This document shows positions 295 to 44,294 of a stretch of DNA of 64,000 bases, piece by piece. The position numbers and the translations under genes were made by a program. Under the pieces are notes generated by a model that searched no databases, had not been told where the DNA came from, and saw nothing but the letters and a program-made list of their open reading frames with translations. This DNA is from Candidatus Bilamarchaeaceae archaeon (GTDB taxonomy: Archaea; Micrarchaeota; Micrarchaeia; Anstonellales; Bilamarchaeaceae): assembly GCA_038870635.1 (NCBI GenBank), contig JAVZJR010000003.1, forward strand, positions 4,880 through 68,879, given 5' to 3'. Position 1 is the stretch's first letter. Each line of letters begins with the position of its first letter.

Positions 295-1536
295 ATGATA
301 ACATTGGATTGTCTTGGCGCAGCTGGAGAAGTCGGCAGAAGCGCCTTTCTTCTAAAAACCGACAAACGCCTTCTTCTTGATTATGGTGTAAAGATTTTTG
401 ATATTTCTGGAAAACCACGTTTCCCAAGCGAGGACGTAGAAGTAGATGCGATGCTGCTCAGCCACGCACACCTTGACCATAGTGGCTTTGTGCCTGCGCT
501 CTATAAACGAAATCAAAAAATAAGGTGGTTTGCTACACCACCAACAGAAGAGATATGCGAACTCCTGTGGTATGACTCAATGAAAATAATGGGAGAAAAC
601 CTACCGTACTCTCAGCAACATTTCAAAAAAGCGCTTTCTAACTGGAGCCCGATGCTTTACGGGCAGCCTTTGCAATTTGGAGAAACAGAAGTTATGTTAA
701 ACGATGCTGGCCACATAGCAGGAGCAGGAATAATAAGCATAGAATACAACAATAAAAAAATAGTTTATACAGGTGATTTTAAGTTAGAAGACACAAGAAT
801 GCACAAAGGCGCAAAAACAATAAAAGGCGCGGATGTTTTAATAATAGAGAGTACTTATGCTGATAGAGAACATCCAAACAGAAAAGAAATAGAATTAGAA
901 ATAATAAAACAGATAGAAGAAACTGTCGAAGAAGGCGGAAGCGCTCTTTTTCCAGCATTCTCTCTTGGAAGAACGCAGGAACTTATCGCATTGATAAGAC
1001 ATTACAACAGAGAGGTACCAATATTCGTAGATGGTATGGGAAAAGATATAACTCAGATTTATCTTCGTTATGGAAATTACATAAAAGATATTGGTGCATT
1101 TAGAAAAGCAGTTAATAGCGTTGTAATGATAGAAAGAAGAGACCAAAAAGCAGAAGCTACACGAACGCCAGGAGTGATAATAGCAAGTGCAGGAATGCTC
1201 ATGGGCGGACCAATGGTCAATTATTTATTCAATGCAAATAACAAATCAAGAATAATATTCACTGGGTATAACGTAGAGGGAAGCAATGGTTGGTCATTGC
1301 TAAACAAAGGTACTATAATAGTTGACGGACAGGAATTAGCAGTTGATCTTCCAGCACAATATCTTGACCTTTCAGCTCATGCAGGCAGAAGCGATCTCTT
1401 AAAATTCATAAACGATGCATCGCCCGAGAAAATAATATTAGTCCATGGGGATAAACCTGACCTATTCGCAGCAGAGCTCCAAGCAGCAGGATATGATGCG
1501 GTAGCACCTAAGATTGGTGAAAAAATTTCAATCTAA
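295..1536 (+). CDS. beta-CASP metallo-beta-lactamase ribonuclease, aCPSF2-type (no KH domains)
   Basis: MBL motifs 'SHAHLDHSG', 'NDAGHIAG', 'YTGDF', 'ESTYA'; beta-CASP motifs 'SAHAGRSDL' and 'LVHGD'; 413 aa. Confidence 0.85.
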   Translation: MITLDCLGAAGEVGRSAFLLKTDKRLLLDYGVKIFDISGKPRFPSEDVEVDAMLLSHAHLDHSGFVPALYKRNQKIRWFATPPTEEICELLWYDSMKIMGENLPYSQQHFKKALSNWSPMLYGQPLQFGETEVMLNDAGHIAGAGIISIEYNNKKIVYTGDFKLEDTRMHKGAKTIKGADVLIIESTYADREHPNRKEIELEIIKQIEETVEEGGSALFPAFSLGRTQELIALIRHYNREVPIFVDGMGKDITQIYLRYGNYIKDIGAFRKAVNSVVMIERRDQKAEATRTPGVIIASAGMLMGGPMVNYLFNANNKSRIIFTGYNVEGSNGWSLLNKGTIIVDGQELAVDLPAQYLDLSAHAGRSDLLKFINDASPEKIILVHGDKPDLFAAELQAAGYDAVAPKIGEKISI

Positions 1537-14287: not shown

Positions 14288-14689
14288 ATGTTAGGAATGG
14301 TTGGGATAAGGCTTCTTGACGGAAGTGTAAAGATAAAAGAAGACACGCCACCCAAAGGGCTTGCAATCGATTTAAAGATAACGAAGATAAGCAAAACTGA
14401 AAGGCCAGAGCTTGCGAATGTAAAGTTTTCTTATACAGTCTCATACACGCCAAATACAGCAGTGCTTAAGCTTGAGGGAGACGCGTTATTTACTGATGAA
14501 CCAGCTGTCCTAGAAAAAATAATAACATCTTGGAAAGAAAAGGAAAGAATAGATGAAGAAATAGCAGCGCGAATACTTAATTTCATAAATCCGTTTGTAA
14601 CACACAATGCCTTACTTATGCTCCGCGCGTTTAACCTTCCGCCACATATATCCCCGCCTCCGATAATACCACAGAAAAAAAGCAAATAA
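14288..14689 (+). CDS. hypothetical protein (133 aa)
   Basis: SD GGTGA upstream; Pro-rich C-terminus 'LPPHISPPPIIP'; no confident family. Confidence 0.5.
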   Translation: MLGMVGIRLLDGSVKIKEDTPPKGLAIDLKITKISKTERPELANVKFSYTVSYTPNTAVLKLEGDALFTDEPAVLEKIITSWKEKERIDEEIAARILNFINPFVTHNALLMLRAFNLPPHISPPPIIPQKKSK

Positions 14690-14700
14690 AGTGATAATAG

Positions 14701-15423
14701 ATGGAACTAAAAAGTGTTTTTGCAGCATATGGTGAAAAACCACTACTTTTCTTATGGGGGTCATTGCTTTACGTTTTTTTCTCTCTTATAGTTTTACTTT
14801 CAACTATTGGCATTCTTCTTGTCTCATTCTTGCTGCTTTTCTTTTTTGGATACTTACCTAATTTTGATACACCTCTAAATCTAATACTATATGCCCTACC
14901 AACAACAATAGCATTGCTCTTTATGTTATACATGAACGGATGCATCACCGCAGCAACTATTTATGCTTACAAAAATGCCACGAATGGCACTGCAATCTCT
15001 CTAATAGATTTTTATCACTACGGTCTATCCCGCGGTCCGATGATGTTCTCTATAGGAGTACTAAGGGATTTCTTTATGTTTATCGTAATAGGAGTAGGGG
15101 CTGCGATTTATTATTATGGATTGCAGGGATTTGAGTATGGCACCCATATACTAGTAATTTATACTCTTATGGTTCTCTTCGTGTTCCATCTTATTACAAA
15201 ACCAGGAATAATTGCTTGTGGTCTTGGTGAACGTCCATTTGAAAGTTTTAAGAAAACCTATCTTGTTTTTGCAAAAAAACATATTTATTTTATAGTGTTT
15301 TTTACAATGTATGCCTTTGTTTGGCTAATGAATTTTATTCCAATTTTGCAGTTTATTTCTCTCTTTGTACTCTTCCCTCTTTCATATAGCGCATTGATAA
15401 AAATGGTTGAAGAGATAAGGTGA
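14701..15423 (+). CDS. hypothetical polytopic membrane protein
   Basis: 240 aa with about 6 hydrophobic helices; SD GTGAT upstream. Confidence 0.6.
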   Translation: MELKSVFAAYGEKPLLFLWGSLLYVFFSLIVLLSTIGILLVSFLLLFFFGYLPNFDTPLNLILYALPTTIALLFMLYMNGCITAATIYAYKNATNGTAISLIDFYHYGLSRGPMMFSIGVLRDFFMFIVIGVGAAIYYYGLQGFEYGTHILVIYTLMVLFVFHLITKPGIIACGLGERPFESFKKTYLVFAKKHIYFIVFFTMYAFVWLMNFIPILQFISLFVLFPLSYSALIKMVEEIR

Positions 15424-15428
15424 TTTTT

Positions 15429-15737
15429 ATGGATAGATTATACGAAATCGCTTTAGAAAAAAGGGCACAGTTAACTAAAATACTAGAAAACGAGCCTTAT
15501 GCTCCTGATAGTTTTGCCCGCGTGGGCTATCGTATTAGGGATGGTGCAACATTGGAAGAAGATAAAACTAAAATTTATTTATTCATATCATCTTCAGAAG
15601 AATTCGTAAAAAAAGCAGATGATAGATTAAAAGATGTTGCAGTCGTTGTCGAAGGTGAAAAGGCTTCACGCATAATTTCAAAAATAAAAGCAGAAGAAGA
15701 AGCCGCGGAGAGTGGGTTTGGCTCACTTTTCGGCTAA
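15429..15737 (+). CDS. small protein with a ribosomal stalk (aP1/P1-P2)-like C-terminal tail
   Basis: 102 aa ending 'KAEEEAAESGFGSLFG'; SD AAGGTGAT lies 5 nt before ATG 15429; the N-terminal part does not resemble canonical aP1. Confidence 0.55.
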   Translation: MDRLYEIALEKRAQLTKILENEPYAPDSFARVGYRIRDGATLEEDKTKIYLFISSSEEFVKKADDRLKDVAVVVEGEKASRIISKIKAEEEAAESGFGSLFG

Positions 15738-15815
15738 TTTGTTTTTTTTACTCTTTTTTATACTAACATACACATTTATAAATAGAATTATGTTTAATAA
15801 TTATTAGGGGTTGAG

Positions 15816-18800
15816 ATGAAATATAAGTTTAATTTATTAACTACGAAAGATTTAAATAAACTAAACAATACTAATTATAAGTCGAGATGTTTCTCGATAA
15901 AGTATCCGCGGCTCTCAAAAGCAATTGCTGCTGGATTAGGTTTATGGTTAATGTTAGAGGGTGTTATTATGCCTATAGGCGGTGGTGTTTATGGAAAATT
16001 TGGAAAAGAGGTTTATGCGCAAACTCCAAAGAAAGTTGACCCATACGACGAATTAATTGAATCGTTGAACCAAATAATAAAGGAAAATGAAAAAATAAGT
16101 AAAGAATTGAAAGAAGGGACGGCGATACCACTTTACTTAAACAGTAAAAATGGGAAAAATATATTAACTAGATTAGAAAAAGCCGGTTTTGAAGTAAAAG
16201 ACGGTAAAGTATTATACAAAGGAAAAGAAGTATATACATTATCTAAGGACAAGAAAGGACGCTATTATATAGGGGATATTAATGAGTTTACAAATGAAAT
16301 TGTAGTCATATATAATAAAGAACAAGCAAACATGGCAATTGAAAACATAGAAAAAGAAGAAAAAAATAAGCCTACTGCTGTAGCTGTAACTCCTGTTAAA
16401 GAAAAATCACAAATAGAAAAATCACAAATACGTGAAAAAACGGCAGAAGAGAAAGAAAGTATAAATAAAATAAACAAGTATTGGAGCACCGTTTTAGGCA
16501 ATTGGGTTGCATACTACTACCAGACAACTAATAGAATAAAAGAAGAAATAAAAAAAGAAATAGGATATTTAAAAGCGCAGAAAAGTGAAAAAAAACTTAG
16601 TAAAAAAGAAATAGAAGAACTCAATAATAAAATAAATAAACTTGAAGAGAAACTTACAAAAATCGATGATGATTACATAAAATTGAAGAAAGAAATTGAA
16701 CAAAAAAAGAAAGAAGGATATTATACTGAAGAAGACATAAACAAACTAGCAAACATTCTATTAAAAGATTCTCCTCAATTAGAAGAATTTAATAAGTTGG
16801 CTTACCCTGAAAAACTCTCATTCCTAGAACAACATCTCTTTTATGTGTTACATCTTCAAAGTGAAGCAATTAATTCCTACTTAAAACAAGTAGACACACC
16901 TACAAAAGATCTTTTATATGTTTTAGATATTATAAATAAACAAGAACTAGAAGGTTATTCATTAAACAATATTTTAGGAATACGTCTGCTTTTAGCTGCA
17001 ATTAATGATAGAGATCTAGAGAGAAATATATCCAATGCCAAAGAGTACTACGACCAACATAAAGATAAAGGAGAAAAGTACAGAAATATAGCTGAAATAG
17101 AAAAAACCCGATTAGAAGGAATAAAAGGACTTATAAAAGAAAATGAACTCTACAACAAAGCATTAGAGATTACAAAAAACACTTTCGGTGAAAATAGCGA
17201 ATTTTATAAAAATGCGAACAGTAAGTTGGTTGGCGATAAAAAAATAATAGCATACACACTCTTGTCAATTTGTGAATTAAAGAATCTCAATGATTTGAAA
17301 AAAAATACACAAGGATTTCGCTTGGAATTGGCAATTGAACATTTCAACAAGCTCTTTATACCAAGCATGAAAAGCGAGCAGATAAAGAGATTTGAAATGG
17401 CGGGGTATGATATGAAAGAAGATCCTTTATTATTTAATCCTTATGCTGCTCTAGTAATAGCAAATGTTGGTATAGCGCAAATAATGGGAGGATCAAGATA
17501 TATTGATTTAGTAGCTTACTTAAATCGCCATGACCAAATACAAGATGTGCATGCAGTGATAACTTACATATTGGAGAAAGGAGGCATTGCGTACCCATTC
17601 ATATATCAAAATCCTATACTTACAAATGACGATGTGGGTGTTACATTTCTTACAAAAATAATAGATGAGAATAATGAAAAGTTTAATAAATATGTTGGGG
17701 GAATAGACCAATCTTTTTACCCAAATCTCATAACAGATAATAAGAATAGGCAACACAATCCTTACATAGGGTCACCCATCGAAATTATTGAAAGCTACTC
17801 ACCAAATTATATAAAAAGGAAAATATTTCCCCAATTTTTAACCCATCGAAATAATGATAGATATGAAGTAGAGTACAAGAGGTTCAATAATAGACAAAAC
17901 TACCCTGATGAAAGAAAAAAAGAAGACATACTATCACTACTAACACCTACTGAACAACTTTTAGCATTTGAAGCACCGCAGTCAATATTAGCTCCTCCAC
18001 CCACAAAAATACCACCGTCAACAACAGCAAGATTCGAAAGATTATATGTACTCCCAACGCAATTTGAAATGAAAATTGGCGAAAGTGGATTTTATTATAA
18101 TGGTGTACCGTCTCCGAGCGCAATACAAAAAGTTGGGGAAGAAGGCGCAGAGGCGTTAATTAGGGCATTGGTATATGGTTTAAATGTAAAAGAGACGGGC
18201 GATGTTAAAAATGCCGCAGATAATATAATAAATGAACTTAACAAATGGCAACCAAAAAGTGATGAGGAAAAAAAAATTAAGGATGATATAATAACACAAC
18301 TTCAAAACGCAAAAACGCCGGAAGAATTAAGAGCAGCCATAATCAAACTCCAACAAAAAGAACTCGGCATAGATTTTTTAAGTTCTATTTGCTCTTATCA
18401 GTGGGAGGGAAATACACTCCGTATAAGAAATTTGTATGGATTTGAAGTCAACATTAATATGAATGTAACTAAGGAAGAGATAAAAAAAGAATTAGGTGAA
18501 AAATATATAAATTTAATAAGTATTCCAGCAGGATTAGCAGGAAGGATTGGTTTAGCCTATTCACAAATAGCCGGTACTTTAATTGAAGAAAAACTTATTG
18601 ATTTTAATGAAAAGAACGAACCTGTTTTTGAACCGACTGGCAAAACAAAAAGAGCGATTATGAGTGAATGGGAGGTATATTTAAATGGTATATATAATTT
18701 CTTAGCATTCAAAGCGCCAGCTGTCTTGGGTGGGGTTGGATTGGTTCAAGTAAATGTAGATATTAATCTTGACAAACAATCGTTAGAAAGAACAATATCT

Positions 18801-19280
18801 GATAATAAGTTTGATTTTGATAACTGGTTATTCTCTAGTAATATAAGTGTTTCTATTGATTTTCCATTTGGTGAAGGTTTCTTCATAAGAAGATTAGAAT
18901 TAGGTTATCTCAATCCAATATTTATAACACAAGAAGGAAAAATGCAACTAACAGAGAATCCATTCGGAAGCATAACATTCGGATATAAAGAAAAGTTAGG
19001 AAATATACCTCTTGAAATTTATGTTACTCCAACCTATCTAATTAATACAAAGGAACTTATACTATCTTCCCTCATACGAGCACTAATTCCTGTTGGTAAA
19101 AACTGGGGGATTATACCCACTTTGGGATCGAGCTATGATTTTAGAGATGGTCGTCTAAATGCTAATTTTGAACTACCTTTACAATGGGGGATATTTAAGT
19201 TGGGACCGTCGGTAGGAATAGAATATAAAGGCGAAAACATTAATTTCAATATATTAATAAAAGGTGAGGTTAATTTTTAG
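15816..19280 (+). CDS. giant ORFan envelope protein (1154 aa): N-terminal anchor, coiled coil, beta-rich C-terminus
   Basis: Long uninterrupted ORF; hydrophobic 'AIAAGLGLWLMLEGVIMPIGGGV'; K/E-rich heptad-like region; Pro-rich linker 'APPPTKIPPS'; amphipathic beta-strand pattern to the final Phe. Confidence 0.8.
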   Translation: MKYKFNLLTTKDLNKLNNTNYKSRCFSIKYPRLSKAIAAGLGLWLMLEGVIMPIGGGVYGKFGKEVYAQTPKKVDPYDELIESLNQIIKENEKISKELKEGTAIPLYLNSKNGKNILTRLEKAGFEVKDGKVLYKGKEVYTLSKDKKGRYYIGDINEFTNEIVVIYNKEQANMAIENIEKEEKNKPTAVAVTPVKEKSQIEKSQIREKTAEEKESINKINKYWSTVLGNWVAYYYQTTNRIKEEIKKEIGYLKAQKSEKKLSKKEIEELNNKINKLEEKLTKIDDDYIKLKKEIEQKKKEGYYTEEDINKLANILLKDSPQLEEFNKLAYPEKLSFLEQHLFYVLHLQSEAINSYLKQVDTPTKDLLYVLDIINKQELEGYSLNNILGIRLLLAAINDRDLERNISNAKEYYDQHKDKGEKYRNIAEIEKTRLEGIKGLIKENELYNKALEITKNTFGENSEFYKNANSKLVGDKKIIAYTLLSICELKNLNDLKKNTQGFRLELAIEHFNKLFIPSMKSEQIKRFEMAGYDMKEDPLLFNPYAALVIANVGIAQIMGGSRYIDLVAYLNRHDQIQDVHAVITYILEKGGIAYPFIYQNPILTNDDVGVTFLTKIIDENNEKFNKYVGGIDQSFYPNLITDNKNRQHNPYIGSPIEIIESYSPNYIKRKIFPQFLTHRNNDRYEVEYKRFNNRQNYPDERKKEDILSLLTPTEQLLAFEAPQSILAPPPTKIPPSTTARFERLYVLPTQFEMKIGESGFYYNGVPSPSAIQKVGEEGAEALIRALVYGLNVKETGDVKNAADNIINELNKWQPKSDEEKKIKDDIITQLQNAKTPEELRAAIIKLQQKELGIDFLSSICSYQWEGNTLRIRNLYGFEVNINMNVTKEEIKKELGEKYINLISIPAGLAGRIGLAYSQIAGTLIEEKLIDFNEKNEPVFEPTGKTKRAIMSEWEVYLNGIYNFLAFKAPAVLGGVGLVQVNVDINLDKQSLERTISDNKFDFDNWLFSSNISVSIDFPFGEGFFIRRLELGYLNPIFITQEGKMQLTENPFGSITFGYKEKLGNIPLEIYVTPTYLINTKELILSSLIRALIPVGKNWGIIPTLGSSYDFRDGRLNANFELPLQWGIFKLGPSVGIEYKGENINFNILIKGEVNF
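16401..16430 (+). repeat. perfect 2 x 15-nt in-frame tandem duplication (EKSQI EKSQI)
   Basis: 'gaaaaatcacaaata' occurs twice back to back. Confidence 0.9.
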
Positions 19281-19290
19281 GTGAGCACGG

Positions 19291-20757
19291 ATGTTTGATG
19301 AAAAAGTTGAAAATGCATTATGGGTTGTTGATGTAGCAAAAGGGAAGAAGAAACCAGCAACGCTTGAAGAGTGGTTAAAAGTTGTGATATATTCCACTAA
19401 AATACTGCGTTTGTACGACATAAGCGGAAAACTAAATGGCTGGGCGAGATATGTTTTTGATAAGACAAACGCAACATTGGAAAATAAGGCAAAAATACTC
19501 TTGCGTACTATACGAAAAGAAGCACTTTCACAGATACTTTCCCATTCACCTGAAGAAATAAAAGCAATTAGAAACTCTCTTAAAGAAGAGTACATTTCAA
19601 CAAGGGTCATAGACTTTGAACCAGAGATAAGAGAAAACTTTTACACACTACTAAATATTTTCTTAAGCGATACTTCATTAAAATACTACAAACTTGCTCT
19701 TGCAAATCCTGCGCCGGTAAATGTACTTATAAATGATATAGGATATATGTTAATAATAATAGACAATTATTACCTTCCTATAGAAACAATAAATGAATTT
19801 GAAAACGAAAATGACGCATATGCTTTCTTCGCAAACTTTTTGATGCTCATCCTTTATGCAAAAGAGAAAAAAATATTTGAAGCAGATGTATTAATAAATG
19901 ACAAAATAGCATCAAAATATGTAAAAGAATGTTATAGAATATTTTCAAAAAGCATAAAAGATGAGAAAAAATCAGGAATAGCAGAACTAATACGCTCTGG
20001 GAATATTTGGGATGCTGTTGGAGAATTGCAAACTTATGAATCCTTCTATTCAGCATTTAAACAAATGCATAACATAAATCTTGTTTCATTTGCGTACGGA
20101 GAGATAAAAATAACTTCTTTTGTAGCGGAAATAACACTGTCAGTTGATAAGTACGGACTTGAAAAAATGGCAGATATATTTGAGAAAAATAAAAATTCAA
20201 CAAAAGGGTACTTTACTGGAATTTTCTACTTAAACGCTGCGATACAAGATTATTTAATAGATAGAAGAGTTTACCTCTCAAGAGAACTCGACCCAATCCT
20301 CCCAGACGGAGTAGGTTGGGCACTTCCCCTAAAAATAAAATTTGAGTGCACGGCAGATTGGAAAACCATCGTACCATTAAACAAACCTGCTTATCTTTTT
20401 GGTATAAAAAATGCGTATATTGAAACCATGGATAATAAATTTATTTCAGTAAGAAAAGCACCAGAAGATTTTGAAATAGACCCAGTAAATGGTAGCATAG
20501 CAAAAATAGAAGTTTACTCGACAGAAGAAGAGAATGACTTATTTAAAGGGAATATTATGTTCATACCAGAATTTTTAGGATTGCTATCCAACCTTATGTT
20601 AAAAGGAAGAATAGATGAAAGCATAGTTAACACCCTAAATCTAAACCCAGCGTATAGGAAATTTAATTTTATATCAGAAAAAGGTAAAATTGGAATTGAC
20701 GGGCATTTCACAGGATATATAACTGCAGAAACAAAAACAGGAGGTTTGAAAAAATGA
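19291..20757 (+). CDS. ORFan protein (488 aa), no signal peptide
   Basis: SD AGGTGA upstream; 10-nt gap from the upstream gene and an ATGA overlap with the downstream gene; no family recognised. Confidence 0.75.
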   Translation: MFDEKVENALWVVDVAKGKKKPATLEEWLKVVIYSTKILRLYDISGKLNGWARYVFDKTNATLENKAKILLRTIRKEALSQILSHSPEEIKAIRNSLKEEYISTRVIDFEPEIRENFYTLLNIFLSDTSLKYYKLALANPAPVNVLINDIGYMLIIIDNYYLPIETINEFENENDAYAFFANFLMLILYAKEKKIFEADVLINDKIASKYVKECYRIFSKSIKDEKKSGIAELIRSGNIWDAVGELQTYESFYSAFKQMHNINLVSFAYGEIKITSFVAEITLSVDKYGLEKMADIFEKNKNSTKGYFTGIFYLNAAIQDYLIDRRVYLSRELDPILPDGVGWALPLKIKFECTADWKTIVPLNKPAYLFGIKNAYIETMDNKFISVRKAPEDFEIDPVNGSIAKIEVYSTEEENDLFKGNIMFIPEFLGLLSNLMLKGRIDESIVNTLNLNPAYRKFNFISEKGKIGIDGHFTGYITAETKTGGLKK

Positions 20758-23123
20758 AAAAAATAATATTTTTGTTTTTTTTGTTAACAGTATTTTTTGC
20801 TACTGAAAACTCTATTAGAATTCATTACCACAGCCAATATGAAACATCAGATGTTATTACAAATCAGAAATTTGTCGCAGATTTAAAAGAATGCACAATA
20901 ACTGGAAAGGTTATAGAAGGTGATCCATGCAAAGCAGGCATTTCAAAAGTATGTAAAAACACCGTTATTACATATACGCCTCGGATTGTTGGGTTGTGGG
21001 GAGATAACAACAACTATATTACAACAACTTTGCCAAATTGTTTTTGCAAAGCACCAGCGGGCTCTGGTCTTCCAGATAGACCATCATACTGTGATCCAAA
21101 CACAAAAACATGTTCATGTACTGTGGAGGGGTATACTCTTTATTGTCCTGAGAATTACTTAGTTGATTACAACACTGATAATAGAGTACTAATTGCTTGG
21201 TTACCAGAAAGCATTTATAATAAATATGATGTAGAGCATCATGGTTATGCTGAGCAAACAATTTGGTCAGGTTATGCAGCTGGAAAACAAATACTCCAAC
21301 TTTATAAAGAACTTGGACCAAATAATTATCACGCACAAACAATAGATAGATACGATGCAACTTTCACTACATATTATAACAAAAAAGGATATGCAGCAGT
21401 ATTTTGCAAAGGAAAGTATGAAATGAAAGAAGGAAATAATATAATAAGAAGCGGAGAGATGCCAATCCAAGAAGGTCTACCCCAAAGAATTTTGATTTTA
21501 AACAATGTTGGGACAACAGCGACATTTAGTTCAAAACTTTATGGTCTTGATTGTTTTGCTTCTGTTATAAGGCATCCAAAAGATGATGACTACCTTTATG
21601 GTTTTGAAATACAATTTAATGGTTATAAAGTACCACCAATTTCTAATGTAGAAGACATTCACCAAATTGAAGTTGTCGATATAAAATCATCTATGGAGAT
21701 TATAAGCACAGAAGTAATAGCAAAAGATGGAAGCGGCAATTATTTACTTAAAACAATTGTAAAAAACACAGGTGATGTAAGAATAAAGATAAATGAAACA
21801 AAAGCAGATTATTTACCAAATTCAGGAGCAACACCAATGGATAGACAACTATGTAATTTAATCTTCGGACCAAATCCACCAGCAGAATGCAATTATCCAA
21901 ATGGATATAATTCATATTTTAATCCTGGTGAAGAAAAAACGCTTTATACATTATACCTTTATCAAGGAGAATCCAAAGAACTCTGCGATGTTTCAATTAT
22001 GAGATTAAGTTATACATCCGACCAACCAACTTGCTCGCAATATGATAAATGGTGGGCAGCGGTTAATGGACCGTGTATAACCGAACCTATAAAATATCCG
22101 CCAAAATGCGAGGTAAAACCAAAAGAGAATACCATTAATCCTCTTGAGATTCACGAATGGACGGTTAGTTGTTTTGATGAGAATAATAAAGCAGTAGCGT
22201 GTGTAGGTAATAATTGGAGATGGGAAGGAATAAAAGGTGATTTCGTAACAAAAACAAATGAAAAAGCATTAGCGTATTCAACTGCAACTAGTAAAGTAAG
22301 TGGTAAAATAGTTTATAGACAAGGTGAAATAAATTGCAGTGCAAATGTAACAGTTGATCCGCGCTCTCTTCCACAATTTGTTTGTATGCTTGAGCCATCA
22401 TCTGCAGAAATGGTTGTTAATGAAACTAAAAATTTTGACTTAAAATGTATATTTAGAGACGAAAGCGGCTCTTCAAAAGAAACAAAGCCTCAAAAAGCAG
22501 ATTATGCAGCAGTCGAAGGGCTCATAGGAAAAGTCGAGCCATATCCACGCGATCCAACAAGTGGTGTAACCTTTAATGCAACTGACGTAAGCGCAGGAAA
22601 ACTTAGAGGAATAGGTTATTACACAACACCTTTGGACCCAACATTAAGAGGAGCGATTGCCTTTTCATCAATAAATGTTGGTGCTGGTGAATTACAATGC
22701 GGTGAAAACGAGACGCTGGTTTGCCACCTTGAAGAGATAGAACTTCCATTCGGAGGCAGTACATTTATAGTTATATGCGAATGTGTGCCAAAAGAAGATA
22801 ACGAGGAAGAAGACAAGTCAAATATGGAGTGCGTTATAAGCCCACCAAATCAAAGGATATCACCATTACAACCTGGATTAGCAACTGTGAGTTGCTATGA
22901 TAAGCAAACTTGGAGCAGGGTAGAATGTGGCAGCGATATAACCTGGTCAATAAATGAGAACCTAGCGACATTCAAAGATAATACTTATGGAAAAACAAAT
23001 GTTGTATTCAATGCAAAACCAGGCGCTACTGGCGAGGGGTTCTTAAACGCCAAAGTAGGCGATAATGTAAGATGCGAGGCCAAATTCCTCGTTTCTCCAT
23101 ACACATGCTTAGAAATCAGCTAA
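20754..23123 (+). CDS. secreted Cys-rich ORFan (789 aa) with a CARDB-like segment and three Cys-framed Ig-like modules
   Basis: Signal-like N-terminus 'MKKIIFLFFLLTVFFA'; SD AGGAGGT; 'TIVKNTGDVRIKI' CARDB-like segment; three repeated modules of about 90 aa at aa 451-781. Confidence 0.8.
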   Translation: MKKIIFLFFLLTVFFATENSIRIHYHSQYETSDVITNQKFVADLKECTITGKVIEGDPCKAGISKVCKNTVITYTPRIVGLWGDNNNYITTTLPNCFCKAPAGSGLPDRPSYCDPNTKTCSCTVEGYTLYCPENYLVDYNTDNRVLIAWLPESIYNKYDVEHHGYAEQTIWSGYAAGKQILQLYKELGPNNYHAQTIDRYDATFTTYYNKKGYAAVFCKGKYEMKEGNNIIRSGEMPIQEGLPQRILILNNVGTTATFSSKLYGLDCFASVIRHPKDDDYLYGFEIQFNGYKVPPISNVEDIHQIEVVDIKSSMEIISTEVIAKDGSGNYLLKTIVKNTGDVRIKINETKADYLPNSGATPMDRQLCNLIFGPNPPAECNYPNGYNSYFNPGEEKTLYTLYLYQGESKELCDVSIMRLSYTSDQPTCSQYDKWWAAVNGPCITEPIKYPPKCEVKPKENTINPLEIHEWTVSCFDENNKAVACVGNNWRWEGIKGDFVTKTNEKALAYSTATSKVSGKIVYRQGEINCSANVTVDPRSLPQFVCMLEPSSAEMVVNETKNFDLKCIFRDESGSSKETKPQKADYAAVEGLIGKVEPYPRDPTSGVTFNATDVSAGKLRGIGYYTTPLDPTLRGAIAFSSINVGAGELQCGENETLVCHLEEIELPFGGSTFIVICECVPKEDNEEEDKSNMECVISPPNQRISPLQPGLATVSCYDKQTWSRVECGSDITWSINENLATFKDNTYGKTNVVFNAKPGATGEGFLNAKVGDNVRCEAKFLVSPYTCLEIS

Positions 23124-39068: not shown

Positions 39069-42000
39069 ATGGCTGATGGAAAAAAAACAATCAGCTTACG
39101 CTATAAAATAATTTCCAATATATTACTTGTTAGTTTATCAACTACAACTTTTTTCTCTCAGCCTAACTTTAAAAATCCTTTTAGGCTAAATGATGTTATG
39201 GCAGAGGGATATCGTGTCTCTAAACAACCACAGGAGATAGACATAAATAAAAAGATAGAAGAAATAACAAAGATAAACAATGAGAAAAAGAAAAACCAGA
39301 ATATAGAAGAATTGATAAATTATATTAATAAAAATAATAAAAATTTAAATAACTTTTTATCAACCTTCAAACAAACAACACTTAAAGCAATGGATGATCC
39401 TCAAGAATATCAAAAATTCCTTATCTATGTGCAAATAATAAATAAAATAGAACTACACAAAAATGAAAATTTCATTAGCATAGTAAAAGAAATAATAGAA
39501 AAAATTAAAGAGGAAAAAAAAGATATTTGGGAAGCTTATGATAAATATCTGAAGGATAAGGGTGAAAAACCAAAACTGACAACATTAATCAAAATAATAA
39601 ATGATATAAAAACAGGGGAAGATTCTTATCCGAACTATCTTAAAGAGGCCGTACTTGGGGGAAAAAAGGGAACACAGGAAATACCACCATCATTGATAAT
39701 ACCGACTCCAATCAAAAAGATTGATAAAGAAGATATAGAAAGCACATTAAAATTTGCAGAAAAAAGAATAGAATATGCTAAAGAAACCATACAACAACTT
39801 AAAGAAATGGCTAACGAAATAAAAAATAATGAAGAAAAAAAGAAGGTAGACGAAATTATTGCAAAATGGGAAGAAAAAATAGAAAATTATGAGAAGATCA
39901 TAAAAGAGAGTAAAGAAGCTTTCTATAAAACTTCTTATGAAAAAGAAGATGCGACGAAAATAAAAAACATAACAAAGATTGCAACAGAAATTGAAGAATT
40001 TATTAAAAATGAATTAGTTCATTCGAGCGACATAAGAATAACAAAACAATTTGCTTATCACCTTATAGGAGCAATGACCACCGGTACAGAAGGGGACTAC
40101 ACAGAAGTACAAAAACTTAAAGCTATTCTTGAAAACACGAAAACGATAGCACCAAAAAAATATGAATTTTGTATAATGCTTATTAAATCATTCGTGCAAG
40201 AGGTCTCACCGGATGTCTACAAAGCATTAGAAAGCATTAATTCTGAGAGAGCACTCAATATAGCGATAGCAGCAGTATTAACTGCAAATGATAGAGAATT
40301 ACAAAAAATAAAAGAACAATATGGCAATGATTTTGTATCTTATGTTTTAGGAAATAGAGAAAAAATAAATGAAAAAGAAATAAGAGAAGAAGCGAAAAAA
40401 AGGATAAACATTGACTTTGAAACTCCAATTACACAATCGCTTGCTTTGCTCGACGCAGTGAGAATTCTTAGAAATCGACTTACTTATATTCTAACATCAA
40501 CTGATTCATTAGAGAGTATGCAAAAAAACATCTCAAATTGGATGGAGAATTATAAAAAAATAGCAGGCAATGATCTTGCCTTACTCAACTTATTTTATGA
40601 TATCGATAAAATAGCCGAAACTGCGGGACTAAAAAAACCAACCAACACAGAGGAAGCAAAAAAACTATTTTTAGAGATTTTTAATTACCTCAATCAGAAC
40701 CAACAACAAACAAATATAGCTTCTGCTGATGCGATAACAAAATTTTATCTTTTAAAAGTAAGAGAGCTAGCAACCAAATACAATCTAGACGCAAAAGCAG
40801 TAGAAGCGATGGATATATCGATAATCGCCTTGGAAAAAATAGATCGTAAATTAATACCTGCTTTTTATGAGGATGTAGTTGTAGTATTAGCAAAAACACT
40901 AGAAGGTAGATCTGCTGAGTTCTCAGAATCATTACTAACTTTTAGCGGTCTTCTTCAAGCTCGCTATCCCACTGAAAGAGCAAATCTGTCATTTTTAGTT
41001 TTGGATGTAGAAGAAAAATTCAAAAAGGTATTTATATGGTTTAAAGAGAATATACCACAAGCAACAGCGAAAATGACTCATTATGAACTTATGGAAGAAA
41101 CAAGAGAAAGAAGTGAACTAACAGAATACGAAGTTTACCCCCCCTATAACTTATATGGATTAAAAGAATCAATATGGCAAAGACCATCTGCGGTCTATTT
41201 TCAGGATGTATTTTATAGATATGGAATTGATTATCTTCCAAATCCTCAAATTCCTTACCCTGCTACAATGCCTTATGGCCCATTGACAATAAACACAGAT
41301 GCAGAAGGACTTCACCTAAAATTAGACAACCAACTTAATCCATTCATTCCTACATTTGGAAGACCAACCTTAAGCGGAGATTTTAGGATTACTGCAGTTT
41401 CAAGAGCAGTCATGCTTGCAACAATAAGAAAAGCATTCGGTCAAATATCTATGTATTCTCCATATGAATTAATAGCGGCATATGGTGAAAGCGCAGGGTA
41501 TTATAGATGGGAAGAAAAAAAAGGAGGAAAAATAACTGAAACGATGGGGGCAGGCGGCCTCAGAGGTAAATATGAAGAAAGGCATCCTGCTGGTGGTTTA
41601 GCTGCACAAATAGTAGGTGAAAAAAGCACAACAACAAGAGAAGAAGGTGGTGGCACTGAGGAAATCAAAACAACAATTGGAAAAACAGATTTGTATGGAA
41701 CATTAACTGGCGGCGGTGTTGGATCCATAGTCACCGTGGCGGATAATTTAAGATTCACAGAAGAAGAAAGACCGAATAGCAAAAATGCTGCTATGAAAGC
41801 TACCATCAATCAATTAAGCGCATTATCACAAGAAAATGGACAAAGTTTGCTTGTTTATTTCCCTGATATTGAGACAGAGGAAAAAATAGTAAAAGATGAA
41901 AAAGGCGTGGAAAAAACAGAAAGTAAAAAAATAATGGGTGGGAAGGTCTACTATATTAATCCTCATGGTGATGTTTATCAGTTAGCACTTGGCCATAATG

Positions 42001-44294
42001 AGTTTGATGCTTTTAAGCAGTTCCTTTATGGAAGCATGGAAAAAGAAAACGTGCTCGCTAGCATGCGAAAATATGGCCAATGGGGTAAAACCGATATTGA
42101 AAATTTAGGTGGAGCGATTGGTTTTACTATTGGACCTATCGCTACGTTTGCCATGGAAGATGCAATTAGAAGGATAGGCGCGACAACCACAACAAAATAT
42201 GACGAAACTGTAGGGAGAAATGTAAGTGTTGTTGATTTCACAAAACTTGAAGCAGTTGGGTATAGCGGTGTTCCGCTTGCAATGGCATTTAATACATTAG
42301 AAAATGGGACTTTTGCTTTTATAACCAGATTCTCAACGCCTGTAGAAACAGTGACTAAAGAAAGTACATCAAAAACAGGACCAGCATATGAAAAAGGCAT
42401 CTATAACTTAGAAATGATAATAAGGAATATACAGCCACAAAGAGAATATGAAGTAAGAGTAATGGGAGGCTGGCCTGGAGATTTTGGTGTGCTTTATAAA
42501 ATAGGTAAAAAGGAGGGAGAGAAGGAAACGCGATGGCTTGCTAAAGCATCTACATCTACTTATATTCTTTATTCTGATCTTTTCACCTATGAAAGAGAAG
42601 CACAAACAGTTGCAGAGTATGTTAGAACAACAATGGGCGAATTGTATAATTGGAGCGAAGATAGAAAAACAATGGAAGGACATTTTATTGGTTTTACATT
42701 GATGAATGCTGCAATTTCAGATACTATGGAGAAATATACAAAGCTTTCTGACATGGGATGGGATAATACTTATTTCACAGTCGTGGGATCATATTATGCT
42801 AAAAAGTTTGGTATGTTCGGTGGTTTAGAAAGAACACCAGGATATGGTAATCAAATAAATCAATTAACACTGCTAATAGAACAACGAAGACAAGAGATGT
42901 TGCAATATCCTGAGAGGGCTGAAGAAATAGCAAAATCATTGGATGAAGAGATAAAGAGGATGAGGAATACCAAGTTTTGGAAACCAGTTGTTGGTATGCA
43001 ATGGGACCCAGAAACATTCCAAGTCAGACTTATAGGAAAAGCAGAAATAGCAGAGTACAAGGAGAAAGGTATCGACCTTGGCTATTCATTATTTGGCGGA
43101 AACTTTTTTGTTGGACATAAGAAAGGAATGCAACCTTACTTTGAATTATCAGCTAATACTCTGAGGTATAACCAAAATGCCTATCTTGATTTATTATTTG
43201 CTTTGGGAGCTGCAAAAGTAAACTGGAAACCTTCAAGCACATTTACATTTTATACAAGTGAGAAAGATAATTTAGAAGGCATTATGAAGTGGTTGAAAAA
43301 CAACAAAAAAGAATATTTAACTGCGTTGTTCACAAAATACTATAAACTCGATCAAAATCTCGAAAAAATAGAAAATTATAAAGTAGAGATGGCCAAACAT
43401 CTCAAAGAAGAAGGAGGGGCAAAAGTATATTATATTCTTTTTGACCAAGCTAGAGAGATAATTTTTATAGGAAATGAAAAAGATAGAGAGAGTTGGATTG
43501 ATAAATTCCTTGAAGAAGGTAAAGATTTCTTTGTGCTCCATGCAGAAAAAGAAAAAGATGGGACGAAAATAACAATAGAAACAGCAAATGTCAACGAAAG
43601 CAAAATTATGCCAAGAATGAAGTTAATAGGCAGCGTCCCGCTTAAAATGTATGAAAAAGAAACAGAAAGGGTTGGAGGAGTGGGAGCACTTTTGGCCGAT
43701 GTATTCACTAACTACAAACAACAATGGCTTATGGCGTTAGTGGCAGGAAAAAGAATATTTGAAAATGAAGATTGGTCACAGTATAGTTTTGTTGTTTCAA
43801 CAAAATGGAACAATGTTAATCTTGCCAACATTCAAGATAAAATGTATGGCTACGTTGTGATAAATCACATAACAAAAGAAATCAGTGTTATTACACCTGA
43901 AGAAATGAAAGAAGAGATAAAGAGGACAACTGGTGCGACAGGAATAACTTGGGCGCGGTTTGATGGTATTCTAGGTGAAACAGCAAAGCTAAACTTTTAT
44001 CTTGAGGCAGGTGTTGAAGAATATACAACATCTATCCAAAAAATAGGTGAAGCATCAAAATATTATAATGAGAAACTGATAGGTAGGTTAGGATTAAGTT
44101 ATGATTGGAAACAACAACTATACGGATACCCAGCATGGCTAACAATAGGAATAGTCGGATACGTTGGTTATTGGCCTCTTTTAGGCGTACCTACAAATAT
44201 AACTGATATAAGAACGCTAATGCAACAACCATTCTATGGCGCTCCTAATTATGATACAAGAGGAGTTATGTTCTATATTGGTGGAAGTTTCTAA
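39069..44294 (+). CDS. giant ORFan envelope protein (1741 aa): signal-like N-terminus, coiled coil, helical region, Pro-rich linker, beta-rich C-terminus
   Basis: 5.2-kb uninterrupted ORF; 'IISNILLVSLSTTTFF' h-region; ends 'RGVMFYIGGSF'. Confidence 0.8.
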   Translation: MADGKKTISLRYKIISNILLVSLSTTTFFSQPNFKNPFRLNDVMAEGYRVSKQPQEIDINKKIEEITKINNEKKKNQNIEELINYINKNNKNLNNFLSTFKQTTLKAMDDPQEYQKFLIYVQIINKIELHKNENFISIVKEIIEKIKEEKKDIWEAYDKYLKDKGEKPKLTTLIKIINDIKTGEDSYPNYLKEAVLGGKKGTQEIPPSLIIPTPIKKIDKEDIESTLKFAEKRIEYAKETIQQLKEMANEIKNNEEKKKVDEIIAKWEEKIENYEKIIKESKEAFYKTSYEKEDATKIKNITKIATEIEEFIKNELVHSSDIRITKQFAYHLIGAMTTGTEGDYTEVQKLKAILENTKTIAPKKYEFCIMLIKSFVQEVSPDVYKALESINSERALNIAIAAVLTANDRELQKIKEQYGNDFVSYVLGNREKINEKEIREEAKKRINIDFETPITQSLALLDAVRILRNRLTYILTSTDSLESMQKNISNWMENYKKIAGNDLALLNLFYDIDKIAETAGLKKPTNTEEAKKLFLEIFNYLNQNQQQTNIASADAITKFYLLKVRELATKYNLDAKAVEAMDISIIALEKIDRKLIPAFYEDVVVVLAKTLEGRSAEFSESLLTFSGLLQARYPTERANLSFLVLDVEEKFKKVFIWFKENIPQATAKMTHYELMEETRERSELTEYEVYPPYNLYGLKESIWQRPSAVYFQDVFYRYGIDYLPNPQIPYPATMPYGPLTINTDAEGLHLKLDNQLNPFIPTFGRPTLSGDFRITAVSRAVMLATIRKAFGQISMYSPYELIAAYGESAGYYRWEEKKGGKITETMGAGGLRGKYEERHPAGGLAAQIVGEKSTTTREEGGGTEEIKTTIGKTDLYGTLTGGGVGSIVTVADNLRFTEEERPNSKNAAMKATINQLSALSQENGQSLLVYFPDIETEEKIVKDEKGVEKTESKKIMGGKVYYINPHGDVYQLALGHNEFDAFKQFLYGSMEKENVLASMRKYGQWGKTDIENLGGAIGFTIGPIATFAMEDAIRRIGATTTTKYDETVGRNVSVVDFTKLEAVGYSGVPLAMAFNTLENGTFAFITRFSTPVETVTKESTSKTGPAYEKGIYNLEMIIRNIQPQREYEVRVMGGWPGDFGVLYKIGKKEGEKETRWLAKASTSTYILYSDLFTYEREAQTVAEYVRTTMGELYNWSEDRKTMEGHFIGFTLMNAAISDTMEKYTKLSDMGWDNTYFTVVGSYYAKKFGMFGGLERTPGYGNQINQLTLLIEQRRQEMLQYPERAEEIAKSLDEEIKRMRNTKFWKPVVGMQWDPETFQVRLIGKAEIAEYKEKGIDLGYSLFGGNFFVGHKKGMQPYFELSANTLRYNQNAYLDLLFALGAAKVNWKPSSTFTFYTSEKDNLEGIMKWLKNNKKEYLTALFTKYYKLDQNLEKIENYKVEMAKHLKEEGGAKVYYILFDQAREIIFIGNEKDRESWIDKFLEEGKDFFVLHAEKEKDGTKITIETANVNESKIMPRMKLIGSVPLKMYEKETERVGGVGALLADVFTNYKQQWLMALVAGKRIFENEDWSQYSFVVSTKWNNVNLANIQDKMYGYVVINHITKEISVITPEEMKEEIKRTTGATGITWARFDGILGETAKLNFYLEAGVEEYTTSIQKIGEASKYYNEKLIGRLGLSYDWKQQLYGYPAWLTIGIVGYVGYWPLLGVPTNITDIRTLMQQPFYGAPNYDTRGVMFYIGGSF

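Follow-up and report, generated by a model that had tools for sequence, protein, structure and literature searches.

The window analysed here is a 64,000-nucleotide stretch of contig JAVZJR010000003.1 (assembly GCA_038870635.1) from a Candidatus Bilamarchaeaceae archaeon, a family placed in the Micrarchaeia, phylum Microcaldota, of the DPANN group. Its plus strand carries an uninterrupted open reading frame (ORF) for a protein of 1154 residues (P0001, hereafter the giant protein), which ends in ...NINFNILIKGEVNF, followed by a TAG stop codon, and is succeeded by the genes of two partners of 488 and 789 residues (Table 1). From the letters alone, the original prediction likened residues 900–1154 of this protein (nucleotides 18513–19280) to an outer-membrane β-barrel ending in Phe. 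Taken together with structure predictions and homologue comparisons, the giant is best read as a fast-evolving, genus-specific, exported and membrane-tethered envelope or host-contact protein with a tail resembling the barrel of an outer-membrane protein (OMP). All evidence comes from computation and is of moderate strength; the family occurs in a single genus.

The C-terminal part was modelled twice with AlphaFold2 (AF2). Model 1 covers residues 735–1154 and was built from a 5-sequence alignment (mean predicted local distance difference test score, pLDDT, 62.4; predicted template-modelling score, pTM, 0.49), model 2 is trimmed to residues 852–1154 and was built from an 8-sequence alignment (mean pLDDT 66.9, pTM 0.63). 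Strand boundaries are identical in both models, which display 12 main antiparallel strands (S1–S12) of 10 to 31 residues each, arranged in successive hairpins. The pLDDT amounts to 79–87 across most of residues 1021–1121, with one block at 60, and to 58–80 in the first two strands. All seven strand segments quoted in the original prediction are present within residues 1010–1154, and the terminal residue is Phe as described. These segments, ISVSIDFPF (1010–1018), FFIRRLELGYL (1022–1032), GSITFGYKE (1051–1059), LEIYVTPTYL (1066–1075), LNANFELPLQW (1114–1124), GPSVGIEYKG (1130–1139) and INFNILIKGEVNF (1142–1154), coincide with the predicted strands S4–S7 and S10–S12, to which the models add five more strands, the first starting at residue 907.

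When model 1 was compared with the PDB by Foldseek, the best 50 matches were all outer-membrane or organellar barrels (E 5e-4 to 1e-2), including PelB, Sam50, Toc75, TamA, BamA, FhaC, OmpG, OMPLA, COG4313 and EspP. For model 2, the autotransporter domains of Hbp, EstA, EspP and BrkA, each with 12 strands, lead the matches (prob 1.00, TMq 0.37–0.42), followed by FapF and COG4313 (TMt up to 0.45), and nearly all of the best 50 PDB matches are membrane barrels. The named matches in the viral structure library BFVD comprise an autotransporter β-domain, DUF481, porin O/P and OmpW-like proteins; jelly-roll or capsid proteins are absent from them, and a viral jelly-roll or tail-fibre reading is unsupported in this library. 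The resemblance to an outer-membrane β-barrel is thus borne out, at moderate confidence, by two AF2 runs and by fold matches that point to an OMP-type barrel instead of the soluble β-sandwich or jelly-roll considered as the alternative. On the predicted structures, a barrel-like fold of any kind is somewhat more likely than not.

In 11 of the 12 strands, one face is hydrophobic over 6–10 alternate positions, as in S12 (I-F-I-I-G-V-F), S11 (F-L-P-V-I-Y), S10 (L-A-F-L-L-W) and S4 (W-F-S-I-V-I-F-F), and aromatic residues occupy the ends of this face in S2, S4, S9, S10, S11 and S12. Among eight homologues with 19–77% identity in the domain, the hydrophobic faces of the 11 strands are 0–11% charged, compared to 12–43% on the opposite face. 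The strand pattern can therefore be regarded as conserved. The most strongly conserved motif of the β-domain, LAFKAPxxLGGxG (residues 963–975, nucleotides 18702–18740), is situated at the predicted turn between S2 and S3; Leu963, Ala964, Phe965, Lys966, Ala967, Pro968, Gly972 and Gly975 are invariant in five sequences.

Dyad alternation by itself cannot tell a membrane barrel from a soluble sheet, in which it is found as well. A purpose-made 9-mer dyad-moment score ranked the giant's tail third of 429 proteins but placed an ankyrin-repeat protein first; it is therefore unspecific and was given zero weight. The models might accordingly be misleading: an ordinary soluble β-rich domain (sandwich, solenoid or propeller-like) could have been rendered as a meander from a shallow alignment and then paired with OMPs by Foldseek. 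The moderate pLDDT and pTM, TM-scores of 0.2–0.45 with root-mean-square distances (r.m.s.d.) of 9–27 Å over both models, and the lack of a sequence-level link to OMPs are in line with such an artefact. However, two different inputs gave the same 12-strand topology, no sandwich, jelly-roll or solenoid is among the significant matches in the PDB or BFVD, and the very long strands possess charge-free faces that are conserved across homologues at about 20–30% identity, so that an artefact of this kind is considered unlikely.

The original prediction had further associated the terminal Phe with the β-signal of the bacterial β-barrel assembly machinery (BAM). An aromatic C-terminus is uninformative by itself, as a genome scan for β-signal-like ends found one in 77 of 798 crude ORFs (Phe in 5.8%; Phe, Trp or Tyr in 9.7%). 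Within the family the proteins end in VNF, VNF, NLER, NLER, DFKW, ESRW, ESRW and GKTW. A terminal Phe or Trp is thus found in 6 of 8 homologues, corresponding to four of five lineages, whereas two end in ...NLER, and two divergent positional orthologues end in ...IYIPEKKK and ...KIKTPIQNE. Judged from these sequences, a terminal aromatic residue appears common but not required, since the last strand can be followed by a short polar tail; it is the last strand that is conserved, not its aromatic end. Hence, the expected conservation holds for the strand pattern and fails for the terminal Phe.

The search for an insertase suggested alongside the original prediction gave no match to Omp85 (PF01103) or POTRA (PF07244) in the genome, an 859-kb assembly of 8 contigs that is 89.6% complete; the controls matched, and the missing ~10% could hold such genes. 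The autotransporter domain PF03797 gave nothing at E ≤ 0.1 in a six-frame search of the genome, with controls matched, and no Pfam match in P0001 or any homologue. OMP_b-brl and KdgM were likewise without a match in the genome, while the control genomes matched, and no sequence similarity between the giant's family and KdgM was detectable. Matches to Skp/OmpH were rejected as coiled-coil noise, which is present in monoderm and archaeal controls as well. Because the Phe is not conserved in the family and the Omp85, POTRA and OMP families were not found in the genome searches, it is poor evidence for a BAM-type signal. In conclusion, these searches give no evidence of a BAM-type pathway for the giant, which belongs to no bacterial OMP family.

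The closest folds to the trimmed model are the translocator domains of type Va autotransporters (PF03797), represented by Hbp (3aeh), EstA (3kvn), EspP (2qom/8bnz) and BrkA (3qq2). As in these proteins, a large exported protein is predicted to finish in 12 antiparallel strands, with a helix just upstream and an aromatic end. This layout, comprising a long signal-like N-terminus, a large passenger, a helix and a 12-strand domain ending in Phe, would also fit a true OMP of the bacterial kind, residing in a second lipid membrane and carrying a C-terminal Phe strand that is read as a β-signal by a dedicated insertase. The same explanation draws on the autotransporter β-domains at the top of the fold matches, on the terminal Phe or Trp in 6 of 8 homologues and on early cryo-electron microscopy (cryo-EM) of ARMAN cells, which described inner and outer membranes and no surface layer (S-layer) (Comolli and Banfield, PMC4110969). 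In contrast to type Va proteins, the giant has no PF03797 match and TM-scores do not exceed 0.37–0.44. Its 'passenger' is K/E-rich and appears to be helical or coiled-coil instead of a β-helix, with the modelled part (residues 767–850) predicted as helical, and its N-terminus, with the conserved 35-residue tail, resembles an anchor that is retained. Moreover, BamA/TamA were not found in the giant's genome, the terminal aromatic residue is not conserved, and the host is an archaeon in which an outer membrane has not been demonstrated. The genome searches yielded neither Omp85, POTRA, Skp and PF03797 nor another OMP family, the aromatic end is missing from the NLER lineage and from the two divergent positional orthologues, no bacterial homologue occurs among 1.84 billion representative proteins, and cultivated Micrarchaeota/Microcaldota display one membrane and an S-layer (PMC8975820, PMC11329633). 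A bacterial-type OMP is for these reasons very unlikely.

The search of the 1.84 billion representatives, performed with residues 430–1154, matched six proteins, all belonging to the same family; neither a bacterial OMP nor any other bacterial homologue was among them. Word-index searches and contig scans added relatives, resulting in eight distinct full-length homologues of 1142–1212 residues, the nearest of which are annotated as Candidatus Bilamarchaeaceae archaeon; homologues carry the names Bilamarchaeaceae or Micrarchaeota. For the giant and both of its partners, sequence searches of Pfam, NCBIfam and the PDB retrieved nothing meaningful, either with single sequences or with profiles as queries. 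A match to TraF_2 (PF13729, E 0.0017–0.008) was rejected, since it lies below the cut-off and in the helical part (residues 757–903 of P0003).

Of 401 genomes sampled across the phylum, a profile of the β-domain matches only two, which both belong to the genus of the window, and it finds no paralogue in the giant's own genome. The 488-residue partner is present in 4/4 other genus genomes searched and, among 301 genomes of the class, in no others. In two of these (G109 and G121), a giant is located upstream of the 488-residue partner (L018 1–2862 and L017 6332–6994, respectively), with a tail that is missed by the β-domain profile. The tail from G109 is collinear with this profile over 185 columns in hhalign, at a weak E of 0.024. 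By eye, both tails consist of Gly- and aromatic-rich amphipathic strands of very OMP-like appearance (e.g. TLTFGVGSEFKLYGPFEVGFEVYYKT and GTEYYYKNVGISLEGYY) and have short polar ends. Since the partner is found in all four genomes and the giant's tails are invisible to the profile in two, the operon appears to occur throughout the genus, with the giant having diverged so far that it is barely recognizable.

A second giant operon in the window (567/848/196/1741 residues) is not a recognizable paralogue: no BLAST match was obtained, coiled-coil composition is the only pairwise similarity, and hhalign of the β-domain profile with the tail of the 1741-residue giant, 20 kb downstream, gave a probability of 0.65%. 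A 150-residue ORF at the very start of a contig of the assembly (G000 contig C1, 200–652, minus strand) has the same first and last residues as the final ~150 residues of this 1741-residue giant (window 39069–44294), from MYGYVVINHITKE... to ...GVMFYIGGSF, and represents a second copy or else a duplicate that arose in the assembly of the contig end.

The surroundings of the giant are archaeal, as the original prediction had stated; genes in the window include those for a thermosome subunit, aCPSF1, an archaeal-type topoisomerase I (TopA), class-I LysRS and FtsZ. The gene order 133, 240 and 105 residues, giant, 488 and 789 residues is repeated in the independent assemblies L005, L006, L007 and L021, and the giant adjoins the gene of the 488-residue partner, as part of the conserved three-gene operon, in six other assemblies (these four as well as L017 and L018). 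On account of the archaeal genes and the repeated gene order, the giant gene is regarded as truly archaeal and not as a binning artefact. Bacterial contamination or recent transfer was ruled out by the archaeal neighbourhood shared in five independent assemblies, the lack of bacterial relatives and a composition near that of the surroundings. The six-gene block sits downstream of ftsZ (window 14288–23123; L005 6409–15360; L006 6407–15325; L021 4473–13272), and its 240-residue upstream gene encodes a polytopic membrane protein.

The domain layout of the giant is summarized in Table 1. The basic tail preceding the hydrophobic segment is probably cytoplasmic. The hydrophobic segment itself contains invariant Met46, Glu48, Gly49, Val50, Met52 and Gly56 and, by its sequence, fits better with a retained signal-anchor than with a disposable signal peptide. 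Glu48 (window 15957–15959) is positioned in the middle of the hydrophobic stretch (LMLEGVIMP), behind the conserved 35-residue tail, an arrangement uncommon in signal peptides that are cleaved. In its length, the signal-like N-terminus is also reminiscent of the extended signal peptides of some autotransporters; Pfam gives no match here. Residues ~70–440 are K/E-rich, and PDB sequence matches to this region are weak and confined to coiled coils such as GCN4, ROCK and ApoE. The middle module is common to P0002 and P0008 and stands alone in P0008, a protein of 653 residues. In P0002, a partial NCBI protein of 903 residues, the module spanning residues 440–1154 is joined exactly at ...LIKEDELYNKALEITK to a quite different β-rich N-terminal half, which suggests that the proximal half may have been swapped like a cassette, or else that the contig end was assembled as a chimera.

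Table 1. Features of the giant-protein locus, with positions in the window and residue numbers of P0001 where applicable.
Feature	Residues	Window positions	Strand	Basis and remarks
TATA-box-like element TTTATAAATA		15775..15784	+	32–41 nt 5' of the ATG; read from the sequence, putative function
Giant-protein gene (P0001)	1–1154	15816..19280	+	ORF list and translation; full-length intact homologues of 1142–1212 aa
Basic N-terminal tail	1–35	15816..15920	+	Alignment; invariant K11, L13, N14, F26, S27, K35
Hydrophobic segment (AIAAGLGLWLMLEGVIMPIGG)	36–56	15921..15983	+	Top Kyte-Doolittle window of the protein, 1.84
K/E-rich stalk, probably coiled-coil	~200–330	16413..16805	+	K 15.9%, E 13.2%
Best-conserved middle module (YTLLSICELK ... 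NPYAALVIANVGIA)	~440–720	17133..17975	+	Alignments, representative search
Pro-rich linker (APQSILAPPPTKIPPSTT)	~720–740	17973..18035	+	Sequence; pLDDT <35 in model 1
Predicted helical bundle, five helices	767–850	18114..18365	+	Model 1, pLDDT 60–87 (mostly 72–87); DSSP helices at model residues 33–115
Predicted small sheet-plus-helix element, low confidence	860–895	18393..18500	+	Models 1 and 2, pLDDT 29–59
C-terminal β-domain, end F1154	905–1154	18528..19277	+	Two AF2 runs, fold matches, conserved dyad faces
Predicted strands S1–S6	907–930, 936–966, 974–991, 1002–1015, 1021–1037, 1048–1061			Both models
Predicted strands S7–S12	1064–1075, 1080–1089, 1097–1108, 1113–1124, 1127–1138, 1141–1152			Both models
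488-aa operon partner gene		19291..20757	+	Starts 10 nt past the giant's stop
789-aa operon partner gene		20754..23123	+	Signal peptide-like N-terminus, Cys-rich; ATGA overlap with the 488-aa gene

A GGGG purine run is located 6–9 nt 5' of the giant's start codon, and a Shine-Dalgarno-like AGGTGAG in front of the 488-residue partner's gene overlaps the giant's stop codon. For the 488-residue partner, no signal peptide was seen and no known family was assigned by the Pfam, NCBIfam and PDB sequence searches. The 789-residue partner (L005 13054–15360 and L006 12965–15325 in the related assemblies) contains many invariant Cys residues. Its C-terminus, PYTC(L/Q)EIS, is kept in three homologues and replaced by CIIIS in G121; this end could represent a sorting or modification signal.

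The rate of evolution was estimated by the Nei-Gojobori method between the window and the sister strain GCA_038886115.1 (L021). The ratio of nonsynonymous to synonymous substitution rates (dN/dS) is 0.02–0.26 in the flanking genes, 0.54 in the 789-residue partner and 0.96 in the giant as a whole, with values of 0.96–2.9 for residues 601–1154. In this distal half dS is raised as well, to 0.03–0.19, compared to 0.007–0.12 in the flanking genes. The pattern points to diversifying selection and/or recombination, as found in exposed surface proteins. Decay of the gene is argued against, since every homologue keeps an intact frame of similar length.

Fast evolution and restriction to a genus are typical of S-layer proteins, and the layout of an anchor, a K/E-rich stalk and a distal β-domain would equally suit a scaffold of the SlaB or tetrabrachion type. 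In such an arrangement the helix would anchor the protein, the coiled coil would span a pseudo-periplasm and the β-domain would be fixed by protein contacts in the canopy, its hydrophobic faces being buried in an oligomer interface and not in lipid. The 789-residue partner, which is possibly involved in canopy contacts, is a secreted, Cys-rich and Ig-like protein encoded in the same operon. Furthermore, the S-layer units of cultivated relatives reach the membrane in three densities (PMC11329633). The giant's putative single membrane anchor, its probable coiled-coil stalk and its distal β-rich domain all have counterparts in Sulfolobus SlaB and Staphylothermus tetrabrachion, as do its fast evolution and its co-transcription, within the operon, with another large secreted protein of the envelope. 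The giant differs from both in its distal domain, predicted to be an OMP-like meander and not Ig-like sandwiches, and in its N-terminal anchor. In SlaB and tetrabrachion the anchor is C-terminal. Neither a sequence nor a fold match to these two or any other S-layer protein was obtained, the fold matches being membrane barrels instead, and strands of 10–31 residues in 12 successive hairpins are unusual for sandwich domains. An S-layer stalk is accordingly an unlikely explanation.

A bridge between two envelope layers is also known from the OmpM and Deinococcus SlpA tethers, which combine SLH, a coiled coil and a C-terminal barrel. The giant resembles them in having a putative anchor at one end, a long, probably coiled-coil stalk and a predicted C-terminal barrel. 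Unlike OmpM and SlpA, it lacks SLH or any other Pfam domain in a search of the whole protein, its proximal anchor is a membrane helix, and its barrel is predicted to be 12-stranded, compared to ~16–30 strands.

The envelope in which the giant would be placed can be approached through relatives. For cultivated Ca. Micrarchaeum harzensis, a single membrane and an S-layer were reported (PMC8975820), and Microcaldus variisymbioticus ARM-1 possesses a cytoplasmic membrane and a six-fold S-layer; its envelope also displays, at the docking sites of host nanotubes, a 21-nm complex that is shaped like a barrel and so far unexplained (PMC11329633). In Bilamarchaeaceae, a lipid outer membrane is therefore unlikely; the barrel could instead insert into the membrane of the host, or its hydrophobic belt could be buried within a lattice of proteins.

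Based on these data, we propose that the N-terminal hydrophobic helix either retains the giant in the cytoplasmic membrane or guides it across, and that ~800 residues, mostly a helical or coiled-coil stalk and the conserved middle module, would extend outwards. The twelve amphipathic antiparallel strands of the last ~250 residues would most likely close into an outer-membrane-type 12-stranded barrel whose shape is nearest to that of an autotransporter translocator. Such a barrel, with its hydrophobic belt, may be the distal module by which the tether is anchored or makes contact, either in the outermost layer of the envelope or where it meets a host cell. It would insert by itself or oligomerise, with no BAM/Omp85 machine needed for assembly. 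The giant, which is under rapid surface-type evolution, may act together with its two conserved operon partners. A distal barrel-like anchor or contact module of a tethered envelope protein, assembled without BAM, is put forward tentatively, at chances somewhat below even. The more specific version, in which the genus makes a lipid-embedded OMP-type 12-stranded barrel without Omp85, tethered by helix and stalk and inserted in an outer lipid layer or the host membrane, is improbable.

Several observations weigh against the proposed barrel module. The mean pLDDT of the models does not exceed 62–67 and decreases to 53–65 in the last two strands, where the barrel would close, and the depth of the alignment is just 8 sequences. 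TM-scores of model 2 range from 0.37 to 0.45, with an r.m.s.d. of ~9–10 Å over 270–315 columns, and thus stay below 0.5, the usual same-fold threshold. Closure between S1 and S12 and an outward-pointing hydrophobic face are inferred rather than read from the models. The faces of S1, S5 and S6 are mixed, and S5 contains a conserved Arg/Glu cluster. A dN/dS near 1 could reflect relaxed constraint, and substitutions relative to the sister strain are equally frequent in the strands (0.218) and outside (0.21), unlike the loop-focused changes of classical OMPs. Finally, since cryo-electron tomography of two cultivated relatives revealed a single membrane and an S-layer, a lipid home for the barrel is not evident (PMC8975820, PMC11329633).

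Membrane β-barrels are seen as characteristic of the outer membranes of bacteria and of the organelles descended from them, and to our knowledge none has been established in archaea. In the literature, no paper combining Micrarchaeota with β-barrels and outer membranes was found; the nearest published statement concerns a potential relative of PopA in Altiarchaeales, mentioned in passing (PMC12228718). Should the barrel of the giant be real and embedded in lipid, it would bear on the dispute over a second membrane in ARMAN-type cells (PMC4110969 versus PMC8975820) and would imply that barrels can be assembled without Omp85, amounting to an archaeal, BAM-independent route to membrane barrels. 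It would also point to a specific, rapidly evolving protein with which genome-reduced DPANN cells may hold on to or tap their hosts, a candidate part of the DPANN host-contact apparatus. If the giant is instead a stalk of the S-layer that carries a barrel-like domain, it would still put a name to a candidate component of this lineage's envelope.

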